41,398 nucleotides of DNA, taken from Gammaproteobacteria bacterium. Its GTDB lineage: Bacteria > Pseudomonadota > Gammaproteobacteria > Steroidobacterales > Steroidobacteraceae. The notes beneath the pieces are model-generated. The model saw nothing but the letters and a program-made list of their open reading frames with translations. It had not been told where the DNA came from and made no database searches. Below are positions 19,937-26,145 of the stretch, piece by piece. Location of the stretch: assembly GCA_037443885.1 (NCBI GenBank), contig JBBINN010000001.1, positions 1 through 41,398 of the forward strand, in the 5' to 3' direction. Each line of letters opens with the position of its first letter. Positions within the stretch are counted from its first letter, which is position 1. Made by a program: the position numbers and the translations under genes.

Positions 19937-20167
19937 TCACCGGAAGTGTTTCGACAGCAGCGTATGCATCTTCCGGCATGCCTGATCTTCGCTTGTCAGC
20001 ACTTCGAGTTGGCGGCGCACTCCGCGCTCGTAGTGCTCAATCACCCAGTCGGCACCCATCCTGCGGAGAATCAGCCCTTCATACTCAGGCGATGAGCCGT
20101 TGATGCTGTAGACGGCGGGGTCGAAGCCTTCCGCCACAAGCAACGCCTTGAGTTCCAGCACGTTCAT
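19937..20167 (-). CDS. Candidate immunity protein for the upstream Rhs C-terminal toxin (76 aa, family not recognised)
   Basis: The start ATG overlaps the Rhs stop (ATGA at 20164..20167). The ORF is small and acidic, with no signal peptide. Its GC content is visibly lower than the flanks, about 57% by eye. Its position is typical of Rhs immunity genes. Confidence 0.6.
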   Translation of the reverse strand: MNVLELKALLVAEGFDPAVYSINGSSPEYEGLILRRMGADWVIEHYERGVRRQLEVLTSEDQACRKMHTLLSKHFR

Positions 20168-23100
20168 GGAATCCTCTTGAGAAAACCCTGCTGAATCAGT
20201 GTCTCGATAGGGTGAGCAAGCTCGTACTGAATACCGCCGCCCGGTTGGCCGAACCAGGGTGCCGCAGCTCCTTCTCGCACCGGCAACGGGCGAAGGACCT
20301 CGTACTGGCGCAGTGGCGCAGTGACAGCTTGTGGAGGCAGTGCCCGTGCCCCGAAGGGCGTCCCGGCCGGCGATGCGAAGGTCCCGAGTTCAGAGCCATA
20401 GCGATCAATCCGTGACCCGGGCTTCAAAACACCCCGGGTCGGCGGGCCCATGAAACCACGAGACGGCGGCCAGTACGTCTGAAGTGCCTTGCTGCCGCTC
20501 CCCGCCCCGCTGCGTAACTGTACTGCCGCAGCCACCAGCGGAGCACCGAGAAGACCGGTGTCTGGCCCGACCAAGACGCCCGTGGCAGTATTGGCAAGGT
20601 CAAAGGCAATCAGCGTGTAGCCGATCCACTCGAGTGTCCTGGCTGCGTAGTAGTCCGCACCGCGCGCTGGAAACTCCGCGGACGGTGACAGACTCACGGA
20701 AGCCACGGTGCTGATGGGCGCCGGCGGCCCGACATCCCGGCCCGAGGAGCGGCACGCCATCGCCGACCCGTCCTGGCCGCAGGGGTCGCGCTCCCAGGCG
20801 CTCACCGGCTGGCCGAGGCTGCCGGAGCGCATCCAGGCTCCCCACAGCTCGCCCCAGGCGATCCCGAAGCTCTGCCCGTCGCGCAACCCGTGCACGTTCA
20901 CCTGCGCGCAGCGGCCCTGCTCCATCAGGCAGGGAACCTCCTCCGTGTAGCCGGTTGGGTCGACGATCGAGAGCGGGTTGTTCCACGCGTACGAGTACCG
21001 GTTGAGGTCCTGGCCCCAGTACGGCGCCTGAATCACCGGGTCGGGGCTCAGGAAGCGGCCGATGACCGGGTCGTAGACCCGACCGCTCATGTGCACGAGG
21101 CCGATGTGATCCAGCTGCTCGTGGCCGGTAAAGCCGAGGCGCGTCGTGCGGGCCGCCATGAGGATGTCGCCGCTGCCCGGTGCACTGCTCCAGTCCGCTG
21201 CACGGCGCTTGCCGAACGCGTCGAAGCTGGTGGCCAGTGCCACGACGCCGCTCGAATCGACGATGCGGTCCGTGCTGCCGAGGGCATCCTGCGTCAGCAG
21301 CCAGGTCTGGGCAGCAACGCCTGCGTTTGACCGGAGGTGCAGCGCCGCCATGCCGCCTGGGCTCGGCACGTAGTGCCGCCACGTCGTCGTCGACCCGCGC
21401 GTGACCTTCTCCATCAGGCCGCCGAGGTAGATCGTCGTCTCGTTCGTCCCGCCCCAGGTCGCGACCTGCTTCCAGCGCTGCCGGTCCGCGCCGTACCAGA
21501 ACATGCTGCCGGTTCCGCCCTGGCCTTCGATGAGACGTGGCAGGTTGTAGCTGGTCCAGCTGACCCGGGCGCCGTTGCGCGAGGTCATGTTGCCGTTGGC
21601 GTCGTAGGCGTAGCGGTACGCCCCCGCGGCGGTCACGGCGTGCTTCCTGGCTTGGTCATAGGCGTAGCTGCCGACGTCCGAGCGCGAGGTCGGGTTGCCG
21701 GCAAGGTCGTAGGCCAGATCCAGTGTCAGCACGCCGTTTCGGCGCACGTCGTCGAGGCGCCCGAGCGCGTCGTAACTGAAGCTTTCGGTGATGCCGCGAT
21801 TGAGGTCCTTGCGCTCGACCATGTTGCCTTGCGCATCCCAGCGCCAGGCCAGGTTCTGCTGGGCCGAGCCGCCGCCGATGCCGGCCTGGCGGTACTCGAT
21901 CTCGCCGGTCGCGGGATTCACTCCCGTGATGACGCGCAGGTTCGCGCCGCGTGTCTCGTCCAGCACCCGGCCAGCCGCATCTGCCGCCTCGAGTTTCCAG
22001 AAAGTATTCGCGGGCGCGTTGTAATCGCGGATCCGCGTGAGCTGCCCGTGGGCGTACTCGTAGCCGAGCCTCAGGCGATAACCCGTATCGATCGCCGGAT
22101 AGGTCAGCGAATCGAGCTGCCCCATCGCGTTGTAGCCATAGGAGAAATCGTGCCGGACGTCGGCGTACAGCATCTGCCGCGACAGGCGGGACAGGGCGTC
22201 GTAGACATACTGCTCGGCGTAGCCGGGGCCCACGACCTGCCGGAGGCGGCCCGCCACGCGTGAGCTGGCCGTGTTGTCGGCAGGCAAGCCCCAGGTCCAG
22301 GTCGTGGTTCCTTCGGGCTCGCTGCGGGTCAGCGGCCGCGACAGCAGGTCGTACGTGTAGGCGACCTGCTGTCCCAGGGCGTCGCGCTGCGCGACGAGTT
22401 CACCCAGCGCATTCGGCGTGAACGTCCACTGACCGAGAGCCGCGTCGGCCTGGGAGACCTTCATGCCGCGCAGGTTCCAGCCGAGTGTGGCCACGGTATC
22501 GCCGTAGGCGTCGACGACCTGCAGCAGCCGGCCTGCGGCGTCGTAGCGGTAGCGCATCTCGCCGCCGGCGGTGTCGACGGCGCTGACCACATCGCCCCAC
22601 GCAGTCGCCGTGCGCGTGCTGGAGCGGCCGAGGGCGTCGCGCTCCGTCAATGCGAGTCCGCGATACTCGACACCCCTGGAACGCTGGAGCGCTCCCGAAG
22701 CCGCGTGAAGCCCCACGCCAGTCGGCCGGTCGAGCAGATCGTAGGCGAACTGGAGGTGCCCGGCCGCAGCGCCCTGCCAGTGCGGCAGGTTCTCGCGCAG
22801 CAGCCGTCCGCGCGCATCGAAGCGGCGCGATCGAGTGGACAGCGCGCCGCTGGCCTGCTGCTCGCGGTGCACCACCCAGCGGTCGAGGGAATCGAAGGAC
22901 CGCTCCTCGAACCACTGCGTGACTGCTGAAGGCGACTGCTCGGACCGCCGCAGCCGGTAGCGCGCGGCGGGATCGCCGCAGTCCGTGCCGGCGGCGCAGT
23001 CGGACAGGGTGATCACGGTGCGCGTGCGGTCCGGCCGCAACTCCGTCGCCGGCCGTCCAAGCGCGTCGTACGTCCAGCTCGTCACGAGGCCGTTTGCGTC

Positions 23101-26100: not shown

Positions 26101-26145
26101 GAGCGCGCCGAGGAGCGGCAGTGCGCGTTGTGTCGTCGTGTTCAT
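20164..26145 (-). CDS. Rhs/YD-repeat polymorphic toxin: signal peptide, SpvB-like, FG-GAP propeller, TcdB-mid, RHS cage, RHS core, and a C-terminal TNT-like NAD+ glycohydrolase
   Basis: The domain order along the 1993-aa protein is as follows. Signal peptide: MNTTTQRALPLLGALLMMFPLLAAAA. SpvB-like: LSLDYRHNQHGGLLGVGWSLGGLSQISRC. FG-GAP: seven DxNGDGxxDLL-type repeats at aa 345-675. TcdB mid region: RPDLLASVTDGFGASAAFDYAPL. RHS cage: many YDxxGR/YxYDxxGN repeats. RHS core: GRVYDPVIGRFLSPDP...NNPLSIVDPTGY, ending at aa 1733. Tip: YWPPSRGF..GSRIDRYGSELGTFASPAGTPFGARALPP...APWFGQPGGGIQYEL. Confidence 0.9.
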   Translation of the reverse strand: MNTTTQRALPLLGALLMMFPLLAAAAVGRTPGVAWVTPAGAAAYSVPLALPPGTAGLTPALSLDYRHNQHGGLLGVGWSLGGLSQISRCPRTDAQDGAAAPVQYSLQDRFCLDGQRLVVVNGAAYGTVGSEYRTEIESYARIRAHGAAGAGPQHFTVESADGRVLEYGATADSRIDAGGRVVSGVATPRTWALNRIRDRAGNVVDFRYLEDAARFSHRIESVRYNGNPSLGIATSHEVRFVWESRPAGEVDLTYVAGTPVRQVVRLDRVDVLHEGQLVRRYDLSYQPALSSAGRSRLASIQECGVGGSDCLAPTTLQWQDGVPGLGPEAAVPLTISSAPAGDLLPYWITADINGDGHDDLLWTSGASGSSTLRYRLGGPNGLGPEVNAGILAQRPGVPFDYDGDGRADLLTLTATNQWSVIPGTASGPGSPIHTGYTAGSYIDFRGVDLNGDGRGDIAWSELVGHSQDIAVRVRYALPGGGFSPTPVTVYEQGTHTGYEWPEGGYFLGQPGQRIDLDGDGREDLLMDERYSVARITASGVSSEGFDGQPAGALPLDLNGDDCTDLAYRHFSGRWRVRYGSCGGLAWAAPEVEGPAWSGSLPAQVLDWNGDGQQDLLLRGASTWQVMLSAGDRFLPVASTGIALGTLGSTVFADVNGDGLDDLLAIGAGELRYRLHAGPRPDLLASVTDGFGASAAFDYAPLTRPEAYTRASGASWPQRDVQDARPVVVALTLSDGSGNARSTRYAYEGLRFDQQGRGSLGFALRVSTDTTAGATLRTEESWRQDFPYTGLPQARTLRQASGRAIVEKSWLYAQLALGSDAAMRRRPYLSSSTERYFEAGGAYDGVHHTTRAYSVAQVDANSGLVLDASWSTTEHATGHNAGASRTQRLLHTGVLNDSAQWCLGRPLGAQLIESHTLAGGNALTRTAAMSWDSLRCRPTQQQLEPASNQWQLSTALGYDAFGNVSSVAVTGAGMPPRTTRIDWGARGSAPAAITDPLSQVERLAWDAGRGLLLSRTDANGLVTSWTYDALGRPATELRPDRTRTVITLSDCAAGTDCGDPAARYRLRRSEQSPSAVTQWFEERSFDSLDRWVVHREQQASGALSTRSRRFDARGRLLRENLPHWQGAAAGHLQFAYDLLDRPTGVGLHAASGALQRSRGVEYRGLALTERDALGRSSTRTATAWGDVVSAVDTAGGEMRYRYDAAGRLLQVVDAYGDTVATLGWNLRGMKVSQADAALGQWTFTPNALGELVAQRDALGQQVAYTYDLLSRPLTRSEPEGTTTWTWGLPADNTASSRVAGRLRQVVGPGYAEQYVYDALSRLSRQMLYADVRHDFSYGYNAMGQLDSLTYPAIDTGYRLRLGYEYAHGQLTRIRDYNAPANTFWKLEAADAAGRVLDETRGANLRVITGVNPATGEIEYRQAGIGGGSAQQNLAWRWDAQGNMVERKDLNRGITESFSYDALGRLDDVRRNGVLTLDLAYDLAGNPTSRSDVGSYAYDQARKHAVTAAGAYRYAYDANGNMTSRNGARVSWTSYNLPRLIEGQGGTGSMFWYGADRQRWKQVATWGGTNETTIYLGGLMEKVTRGSTTTWRHYVPSPGGMAALHLRSNAGVAAQTWLLTQDALGSTDRIVDSSGVVALATSFDAFGKRRAADWSSAPGSGDILMAARTTRLGFTGHEQLDHIGLVHMSGRVYDPVIGRFLSPDPVIQAPYWGQDLNRYSYAWNNPLSIVDPTGYTEEVPCLMEQGRCAQVNVHGLRDGQSFGIAWGELWGAWMRSGSLGQPVSAWERDPCGQDGSAMACRSSGRDVGPPAPISTVASVSLSPSAEFPARGADYYAARTLEWIGYTLIAFDLANTATGVLVGPDTGLLGAPLVAAAVQLRSGAGSGSKALQTYWPPSRGFMGPPTRGVLKPGSRIDRYGSELGTFASPAGTPFGARALPPQAVTAPLRQYEVLRPLPVREGAAAPWFGQPGGGIQYELAHPIETLIQQGFLKRIP

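Follow-up and report, generated by a model that had tools for sequence, protein, structure and literature searches.

A signal peptide-bearing Rhs protein of TcB-TcC-like architecture with a predicted TNT-type NADase tip and a candidate immunity gene in a Steroidobacteraceae genome

Rhs/YD-repeat cocoons are understood where they ride on a TcA injector or on the spike of a type VI secretion system (T6SS), whereas the class that carries a signal peptide and a TcB-like base has been a bioinformatic category since 2012. This "TcdB/TcaC-type" class was described by Zhang, de Souza, Anantharaman, Iyer, and Aravind (PMC3482391, Table 1) as combining a signal peptide, an SpvB domain, an integrin-like propeller, RHS repeats, diverse toxin tips, and immunity genes. 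Here, we analyzed a locus of this kind in a 41,398-nucleotide stretch of DNA from a member of the Steroidobacteraceae (contig JBBINN010000001.1 of assembly GCA_037443885.1), which we refer to as the window and along which all coordinates are counted. Its Rhs gene, which lies between gpsA and trmL, encodes a 1,993-amino-acid (aa) protein that ends in a predicted NAD+ glycohydrolase (NADase) of the tuberculosis necrotizing toxin (TNT) type and is followed by an overlapping open reading frame (ORF) for a 76-aa candidate immunity protein. The locus is a minimal example of the class, with one toxin gene and one candidate antidote gene amid housekeeping genes, and the known catalytic residues of its TNT-type tip make for an easily assayed toxin. 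We consider it fairly probable that the Rhs protein is a Sec-exported polymorphic toxin, a natural TcB-TcC fusion of the SpvB/β-propeller/RHS class that apparently acts without a T6SS and, as far as the gene contexts covered here show, without a TcA.

As far as the class is set out in the text passages and table of PMC3482391, the window protein shows every one of its sequence-level features. Variability of the C-terminal toxin is seen in at least seven tip clusters among 116 homologs and in a break of homology with a syntenic relative (L001) at about aa 1874, and the 76-aa ORF fits the downstream immunity gene of the class by its position, its coupling to the Rhs gene, the selection acting on it, and its covariation with TNT. 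In that source, the class is a category of comparative genomics for which a mechanism of export or delivery is not demonstrated. No TNT/DUF4237 tip was found for the class in text passages of that source, and the disulfide pattern and two-part cargo leader of the Steroidobacteraceae proteins described below are likewise absent from the published class description, as far as those passages cover it. An initial annotation, made from the sequence of the window alone, had read the locus as an orphan, Sec-exported BC fusion delivering a NADase and had inferred that it is self-contained. That reading is essentially right, with self-containment presumed from the 41-kb window; however, it implied more novelty than there is, as the class has been known from comparative genomics since 2012 and a TNT tip on an Rhs protein was already known from Serratia.

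The BC subunits of toxin complex (Tc) toxins, such as Photorhabdus TcdB2-TccC3 and Yersinia YenB-YenC, share with the window protein the SpvB domain, the propeller, the TcdB mid region, the RHS cocoon, the Rhs-core aspartyl autoprotease, and some 260 aa of C-terminal cargo enclosed by the shell. Unlike these subunits, the window protein combines everything in one polypeptide, which has a signal peptide, seven Cys pairs, and Ca-type FG-GAP blades. It also has a downstream candidate immunity gene, of a kind that was not found in Tc loci (PMC7861908), and it has no nearby TcA, while a family-conserved leader forms part of its cargo. Among all plausible genes of the 41-kb window, each of which was profiled, there was no TcA, T6SS, PAAR, VgrG, Eag, integrase, or transposase gene, and no TcA or T6SS genes lay within 8 to 10 kb of the Rhs gene in the homolog contexts examined, so that the locus is indeed an orphan at this level. 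In three respects, the locus departs from a bona fide Tc component, which would be expected to have a TcA nearby and neither a signal peptide nor an immunity gene (PMC7861908, PMC10847048).

Rhs1 of Serratia marcescens SJC1036 ("Tne4"; PMC10539506) resembles the window protein in its Rhs cage, its TNT-family NAD(P)+ glycohydrolase with an R/F/Q triad, and its downstream immunity gene of a non-IFT type, and its tip was shown to be a NADase delivered by a T6SS (PMC10539506). However, the Serratia protein has a PAAR/T6SS N terminus and an Eag-type chaperone, whereas the window protein has a signal peptide, SpvB domain, and propeller. Classification as a T6SS Rhs effector was rejected because the protein contains no PAAR or prePAAR domain and the window contains no VgrG or Eag. 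The PF14021 domain, catalytic residues, and predicted fold of the tip are also close to those of Mycobacterium tuberculosis CpnT-TNT and the fungal surface NADase AfNADase, but the carriers differ, in that CpnT is an outer membrane channel and the fungal NADases are glycosylated homodimers. Bacterial teneurin-like proteins (PMC13018210, 2026) and Bacillus subtilis WapA are similar in having a Sec-dependent, T6SS-independent YD/RHS shell, a cleaved toxin, and a downstream immunity gene, and one bacterial teneurin-like toxin depletes NAD+ (PMC13018210). The teneurin-like proteins are defined by an FN-plug and an NHL propeller (with or without a TIP domain) and have anchors, whereas the window protein has SpvB, FG-GAP, and TcdB_mid regions and no anchor; assignment as a bacterial teneurin-like protein was rejected, since only the YD shell and core match and there is no FN-plug or NHL domain. 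Finally, a 2025 preprint reports long SpvB/TcdB-bearing Rhs proteins and Rhs families linked to type II secretion systems (T2SS) in plant pathogens and gives no mechanism.

The Rhs gene (20164..26145, minus strand) is an uninterrupted ORF with a G+C content at third codon positions of 0.86, as in adjacent genes, and a GGAGG Shine-Dalgarno sequence lies at 26150-26154, 4 nucleotides upstream of its ATG. Searches with Pfam and NCBIfam profiles recovered every domain that the initial annotation had predicted, in the order it had given. The protein begins with a Sec-type signal peptide (26068..26145, minus strand; aa 1 to about 26) that has a single positive charge, an 18-residue hydrophobic core with a hydropathy peak of 2.3, and an AxA cleavage site before VGRTPG. 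Both the signal peptide and the mature N terminus, A(A/V)VGRTPG, are kept in the homologs inspected, and the signal region of the window copy contains neither a lipobox Cys nor a twin arginine. Export by the Tat route was rejected because the n-region has a single Arg in the window copy and several homologs and because the conserved disulfides point to periplasmic folding. The SpvB/TcB N-terminal domain follows (25498..26034, minus strand; aa 38 to 216; PF03534, E = 2.5e-12), and then comes an integrin-like FG-GAP β-propeller with Ca motifs (24151..25113, minus strand; aa ~345 to 665; Pfam FG-GAP and FG-GAP_3), whose seven blades are marked by DxNGDGxxD motifs at residues 351, 400, 448, 515, 556, 606, and 653 that are largely invariant in the family. 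The TcdB_toxin_midN region (23833..24195, minus strand; aa 651 to 771; PF12256, E = 7e-14) leads into the RHS/YD-repeat shell (21220..23832, minus strand; aa ~772 to 1642; Pfam RHS_repeat, E = 8e-29, and NCBIfam YD_repeat).

The shell is closed by the Rhs core (20947..21219, minus strand; aa 1643 to 1732; NCBIfam TIGR03696, Rhs_assc_core, E = 2e-18). The core contains an autoprotease triad, R1689/D1702/D1729, that is invariant in an alignment of 18 diverse family members and is spaced as in the solved teneurin-like BiTLP (R2103/D2116/D2140; PMC13018210). With these catalytic residues in place, the Rhs-core aspartyl protease is predicted to cleave after DPTGY (aa 1733). When the family profile was compared to solved structures, its N-terminal part matched YenB (5kis; E ~5e-7 over residues 18 to 97) and SpvB (6p0x); these two were detected solely by the first ~200 aa and at the level of profiles. 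The RHS part matched a solved Rhs shell (7q97, E = 7e-32) as well as the teneurin-like structures 9pt5 and 9ifo, and in sequence TcC is more distant from it than are bacterial teneurin-like proteins or the Rhs shells of T6SS effectors.

The last ~104 residues form the TNT-type NADase domain (20167..20478, minus strand; aa 1890 to 1993). The initial annotation had recognized the TNT family by eye in the last ~107 aa, and the profile search supports this decisively, with PF14021 matching aa 1907 to 1992 at E = 4e-32 and 110.9 bits (cutoff, 27) over profile positions 2 to 88 of 88. The ~104-residue stretch matches experimentally characterized fungal surface NADases (phmmer E values of 1e-12 to 1e-17). 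In the phmmer alignment, the catalytic Arg/aromatic/Gln triad, whose residue roles are taken from PMC7955114 and PMC10539506, maps to R1915/F1923/Q1973; the reference triads are R129/F137/Q194 in AfNADase and R757/Y765/Q822 in TNT (PMC7955114, PMC10539506). R1934 is the counterpart of AfNADase R148, the second Arg, which binds nicotinamide. R1934 and Q1973 do not vary among 21 to 23 aligned tip homologs, and conservation of R1915 is at least 90%. An AlphaFold2 (AF2) model of aa 1890 to 1993 has a predicted local distance difference test (pLDDT) score above 90, and a Foldseek comparison placed it closest to AfNADase (6yge; E = 1e-10, root mean square deviation of 1.3 to 1.5 Å over 115 columns), with further matches to TNT (4qlp; E = 7e-6) and to Tse6, Serratia Rhs1-CT, and Tne2 (4zv0, 6xtd, and 6b12 among the entries). 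By sequence, catalytic residues, and predicted fold, the tip is thus a TNT-family NAD(P)+ glycohydrolase, and its activity is predicted. The tip has a pI of 10.6, and the whole cargo is 260 aa long.

The 76-aa candidate immunity gene (19937..20167, minus strand) is translationally coupled to the Rhs gene, as its ATG overlaps the Rhs TGA in the ATGA that the initial annotation had pointed out, and it has a Shine-Dalgarno-like sequence of its own (AGAGGA at 20172-20177, 4 nucleotides ahead of the ATG). The ratio of nonsynonymous to synonymous substitution rates (dN/dS) is 0.10 to 0.17 in three comparisons, with the copies in the related contigs L007, L009, and L016; by this measure, the ORF is under purifying selection and is a real gene. 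A word-based search found five close homologs, and a wider link to TNT came from walking through the gene neighborhoods around tip homologs. Homologs of the 76-aa ORF always lie directly 3' of a TNT domain, in three different architectures. In L007, L008, and L009, the gene ahead of them is again Rhs-TNT, and the chromosomal slot is the one seen in the window. In L016, a 182-aa standalone TNT protein with a signal peptide (P0127) is followed by a 76-aa homolog with the 4-bp overlap kept, and identity to the window copies is 69% for the toxin and 51% for the small protein. In L018, the TNT protein is more remote (45% identical) and the small ORF behind it, probably a remote homolog of the 76-aa ORF, is ~20% identical with shared YS...W...ERG...A positions. 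Such divergence in step, together with joint replacement with the tip, is as expected of a cognate immunity protein, and we infer from coupling, covariation, and cassette exchange that the 76-aa protein neutralizes the TNT tip.

The AF2 model of the 76-aa protein is a compact α-β4-α fold with a pLDDT of 94. The protein has no Pfam or NCBIfam match and no Protein Data Bank (PDB) sequence match at E < 0.48, and comparison of the model to the PDB with Foldseek gave nothing at E < 0.07, which makes it unlike known NADase immunity proteins. Membership in the IFT, Tsi6, Tni2, or RhsI1-Db10 family was rejected, since there is no likeness in sequence or fold although the complexes are in the library (which includes 4qlp, 4zv0, 6b12, and 6xtd). 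If its predicted role is right, the modeled protein would add a new small immunity fold for TNT-type NADases. In L016 (3370-4145), and also in L017, a further Rhs gene, an ORF of 126 aa, and a helix-turn-helix regulator gene precede the TNT/76-aa pair and more small ORFs follow it, which looks like a toxin/immunity array with the cassette as a standalone secreted toxin.

The protein is not a one-off. A protein search listed at least 120 proteins of ~2,000 aa with the same architecture and 47 to 75% identity over ~91% of the query, and the named sources of several of them are metagenome-assembled genomes (MAGs) of Steroidobacteraceae or other Gammaproteobacteria; a scan of genome contigs with the single window protein yielded L012 as the one close relative, besides three Rhs proteins that are remote. 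The carriers belong to uncultured soil MAG lineages, so that practical work would depend on heterologous expression. Within the 116 homologs whose tips were clustered, 77 share one unannotated domain and 8 carry Ntox10, and TNT occurs in the window protein alone; in representative tips of other family members, Pfam recognized nothing except Ntox10. The dominant tip (P0003, P0004, P0006, and 74 others; last ~135 aa) reads YPGIDxFRDIxLKKGTxxYGGxPGQSAFYTT... and has no Pfam match. A DUF7957 gene recurs just downstream of family members (L004:14940-15278, L005:13964-14326, and L006:14461-14838); the name comes from precomputed Pfam annotation and was not recovered with the Pfam copy searched here. 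In L004, the ORF directly downstream of the family member comes first and the DUF7957 gene second, an arrangement suggestive of an orphan immunity gene.

Throughout the family, the cargo after the DPxG(L/Y/F) cleavage motif has three parts: a Cys-rich leader, a hydrophobic/Gly-rich module, and a toxin of 100 to 130 aa. The leader is 55 to 80 aa long and ends in the motif RDPCGQDGSAxAC; in the window protein, this family-conserved element occupies aa 1734 to 1800 (20746..20946, minus strand) and contains C1739/C1746 and C1789/C1798. A leader profile run against 1.84 billion representative proteins returned 17 sequences, and because the strong matches were all ~2,000-aa family members or fragment-like short proteins, we regard the leader as private to this Rhs family; it has no occurrence outside the family in that search from which an annotation could be borrowed. 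The hydrophobic module (type B; 20515..20652, minus strand; aa 1832 to 1877), marked by hydropathy peaks, comes in at least three unrelated types in the family, "FEWF" in the majority, "EWIGY" in the window protein, P0002, and P0006, and "PGWYYS." These types are shuffled independently of the toxin tip, and one toxin was found with different modules. The 14 Cys residues of the window protein form seven local pairs (89/111, 303/310, 562/581, 901/935, 1050/1056, 1739/1746, and 1789/1798). Across the 116 homologs, which are ~50% identical overall, 12 of the 14 are invariant and C1746 is 99% conserved, while C1056 is aligned in 7%; we suspect that this last value is an alignment artifact, as C1056 lies in a gapped, variable loop.

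The toxin tip and its candidate immunity gene move as a unit. A blastn comparison of the window with L001 and L012 showed homology from beyond trmL through the Rhs gene to 20524 (aa ~1874), where it breaks off, to resume at 19712, where gpsA stops. Against L007, whose tip is the same, DNA homology is unbroken through the end of the 76-aa ORF. The break in the one comparison and the continuity in the other define an exchangeable cassette of ~810 bp (19713..20523, minus strand) that takes in the toxin domain, the immunity ORF, and a spacer and has a G+C content of 63% (58% in the immunity ORF), versus 70% for the rest. In L001, the cassette is replaced by an unrelated tip and a 149-aa ORF, and in L004, it is replaced by another tip and a 133-aa ORF; recombination with L001 has its junction precisely where the hydrophobic module gives way to the toxin. 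Outside the cassette, DNA identity to L001 and L007 is ~81% for the Rhs shell (20524-26145) and ~91% for the gpsA-secB-rhodanese block (17000-19712), so that the cocoon is evolving about twice as fast as its neighbors even outside the swapped tip.

The Rhs gene was also said to be inserted between gpsA and trmL, and a comparison of this interval in relatives bears that out. gpsA was used to fetch 80 related metagenome loci, in which trmL and Rhs were located by tblastn. In ~40 of the ~65 contigs with enough downstream sequence, trmL follows gpsA at a distance of 8 to 140 bp, the two genes converge, and no Rhs gene intervenes; these contigs include the closest outgroups, L019 to L021 (gpsA identity, 82 to 84%). 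Since the gap is empty in most related contigs, the Rhs gene is a real insertion, but one that other genomes share: it is an old insertion, common to a sub-clade of the Steroidobacteraceae, and only the toxin and immunity cassette is recent. The closest listed homologs share the trmL-Rhs-small ORF-gpsA slot, namely, P0002 (75% identical; Steroidobacteraceae MAG, L001 to L003 and L012), P0006 (64% identical; L004), and the TNT-bearing sibling in L007. Remoter family members (~50% identical; L005 and L006) occupy a different housekeeping slot, beside a P-II gene. In other lineages, the gpsA-trmL gap holds unrelated genes, such as those for a hybrid histidine kinase and a GGDEF-EAL regulator in L022 (5359-10544) or for a TonB-dependent receptor, an oxidoreductase, and BKACE in L075 (1093-7262). 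The gaps in L032, L042, L059, L081, and L082 are likewise occupied, and the site seems to be a recurrent insertion point.

We propose that the 1,993-aa precursor would be exported via Sec, as supported by the signal peptide conserved in the homologs inspected, and would fold in the oxidizing periplasm into a closed cocoon with up to seven disulfides, one for each local Cys pair. The Rhs-core protease would cut after DPTGY-1733, and the cocoon would keep the 260-aa cargo, made up of the Cys-rich leader, the hydrophobic module, and the 104-aa TNT-type NADase. Meanwhile, the 76-aa protein, in the cytoplasm, would block toxin that folds in or re-enters the cytoplasm of the producer, in the producer itself and in its kin. 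The cocoon (~210 kDa) could leave the cell via a T2SS, in vesicles, or by lysis and would then open at the target cell, where, more speculatively, the hydrophobic module might aid the NADase across the membrane, with depletion of NAD(P)+ as the outcome. Sec export and oxidative folding outside the cytoplasm are strongly suggested, because a cytoplasmic protein would have little use for seven near-invariant Cys pairs and integrin-type Ca motifs. The targets are most likely competing bacteria, since relatives that are otherwise syntenic have exchanged the cassette, a pattern shared with other interbacterial polymorphic toxins, and since standalone secreted TNT and immunity pairs sit in toxin/immunity arrays such as that in L016.

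Several points weigh against this proposal. NADase activity, the immunity function, cleavage, the disulfides, and export are each predicted from sequence, and the signal peptide was judged by eye, composition, hydropathy, and family conservation. No route across the outer membrane of the producer or into a target is visible at the locus. The absence of TcA applies to the window and to the 8- to 10-kb contexts of relatives, and a TcA-like partner could be encoded elsewhere. The hydrophobic module is moderately hydrophobic (Kyte-Doolittle window-19 maximum of 1.6), and AF2 prediction of the whole cargo gave a pLDDT below 50 and no usable model for the leader and module, for which the loss of two rows from the alignment partly accounts. 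Nor does an immunity gene prove that the targets are bacterial, as SPN of Streptococcus pyogenes is an anti-eukaryotic NADase with a self-protection factor, IFS. The TNT/IFT pair of M. tuberculosis is likewise anti-eukaryotic with self-protection (PMC10539506). A bolder version of the proposal, which we hold tentatively and think rather doubtful, is that the cocoon is TcA independent and self-translocating, with the two small disulfide loops of the leader and the interchangeable hydrophobic module doing the job of TcA or a T6SS spike and, after the cocoon has opened, carrying any attached toxin across the target membrane. Such a built-in membrane-crossing device is suggested by the fact that both elements stay with the shell while the toxins change, and the membrane-active hydrophobic cargo segment of BiTLP offers a loose precedent (PMC13018210). 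If this were true, it would add a new mode of delivery to those of Rhs/BC cocoons; the conserved disulfides, the Ca-type blades, and a leader and module that stay fixed while tips are swapped make delivery testable.

The protein might instead supply the BC portion of a genuine ABC (Tc) toxin directed against eukaryotes (protists, nematodes, insects, or fungi), in which a TcA encoded elsewhere would dock the propeller and translocate the NADase while the small ORF protected the producer only, as IFT does for TNT. The TcB-TcC-like order of SpvB, propeller, TcdB_midN, RHS, and Rhs core is as such a toxin would have it, YenB is matched by the family profile, and the cargo, with its basic tip, fits the 201- to 400-aa size range of TcC hypervariable regions (HVRs; PMC7861908). 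TcC genes far from a Tc locus can be functional (PMC11067744), and TNT and AfNADase are tied to eukaryote-directed biology. However, the signal peptide and the seven conserved Cys pairs indicate folding in the periplasm, and neither the window nor the contexts examined in relatives have a TcA close to the gene. Canonical TcB and TcC are made in the cytoplasm. The Tc toxin of Yersinia entomophaga is freed by lysis of a subpopulation of cells (PMC10847048). In addition, genuine Tc loci are reported without immunity genes (PMC7861908), the strain-level swapping of tip and immunity gene is typical of interbacterial conflict, and the conserved cargo leader is an extra that Tc HVRs are not known to have from their published description. 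Taken together, these points make an anti-eukaryotic ABC toxin unlikely.

We give a similarly low probability to a contact-dependent toxin retained on the outer face of the producer, like WapA or the bacterial teneurin-like proteins. Surface display is predicted for Sec-dependent YD-shell toxins that have an immunity gene downstream (PMC13018210), and the RHS part of the family profile does match teneurin-like 9pt5 and 9ifo, but the mature window protein begins directly with SpvB and has no lipobox Cys, TIP, adhesin, S-layer, or autotransporter module, and Pfam found no FN-plug or NHL domain. That the 76-aa ORF is not an immunity gene at all but a chaperone, a regulator, or a chance ORF, with the toxin kept harmless through encapsulation and export only, appears very improbable. 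The want of any Pfam, NCBIfam, or PDB sequence match or structural neighbor and the small number of homologs would be in keeping with this idea, whereas the low dN/dS and the confidently predicted compact fold argue against a chance ORF, and the constant position directly 3' of TNT, both fused and standalone, the divergence in step with it (51% versus 69% in L016; ~20% versus 45% in L018), and exchange as a unit with the tip argue for a bond with the toxin. Moreover, the shell of a bacterial teneurin-like protein alone gave Escherichia coli no protection (PMC13018210). A Sec-exported toxin with its own immunity protein is the reading that we prefer over these alternatives.

The flanks of the insertion are as the initial annotation gave them: secB (18189-18701, plus strand) and gpsA (18722-19711, plus strand) on one side and the gene for a SpoU/TrmL-type methylase, trmL (26285-26893, minus strand), on the other. 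The proximity of secB was dismissed as coincidence, as secB and gpsA adjoin in relatives with or without the Rhs gene. A 145-aa ATG ORF at 19475-19912 (minus strand), on the strand opposite the 3' part of gpsA and the spacer, is probably spurious, as it has no Pfam match and fails a filter on G+C content by codon position. The other plausible genes of the window are all housekeeping genes; they encode DctP, Dtd, TatA/B/C, peptide transporters, amidohydrolases, GGDEF/EAL proteins, S41 and M23 peptidases, a rhodanese, an aminotransferase, DHODH, MscS, an S8 peptidase, NtrBC, GlnA, and GlyQ. The window contains zero tRNA or Rfam matches, and scans of 19600-27000 for promoter and terminator consensus sequences returned nothing, which is uninformative at 70% G+C. 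A 125-aa membrane protein (9196-9573, minus strand) matches Phage_holin_4_2 (PF04020, E = 3e-29) and is encoded amid amidohydrolase genes, with no phage genes nearby. The S8 peptidase is a 1,098-aa subtilase with a PA domain, encoded between MscS and ntrC (30564-33860, plus strand). The syntenic contig L001 is without this subtilase and has genes for a Ser/Thr kinase-TPR protein and an extracytoplasmic function (ECF) sigma factor between MscS and DHODH, a difference that suggests that the neighborhood has further variable spots.

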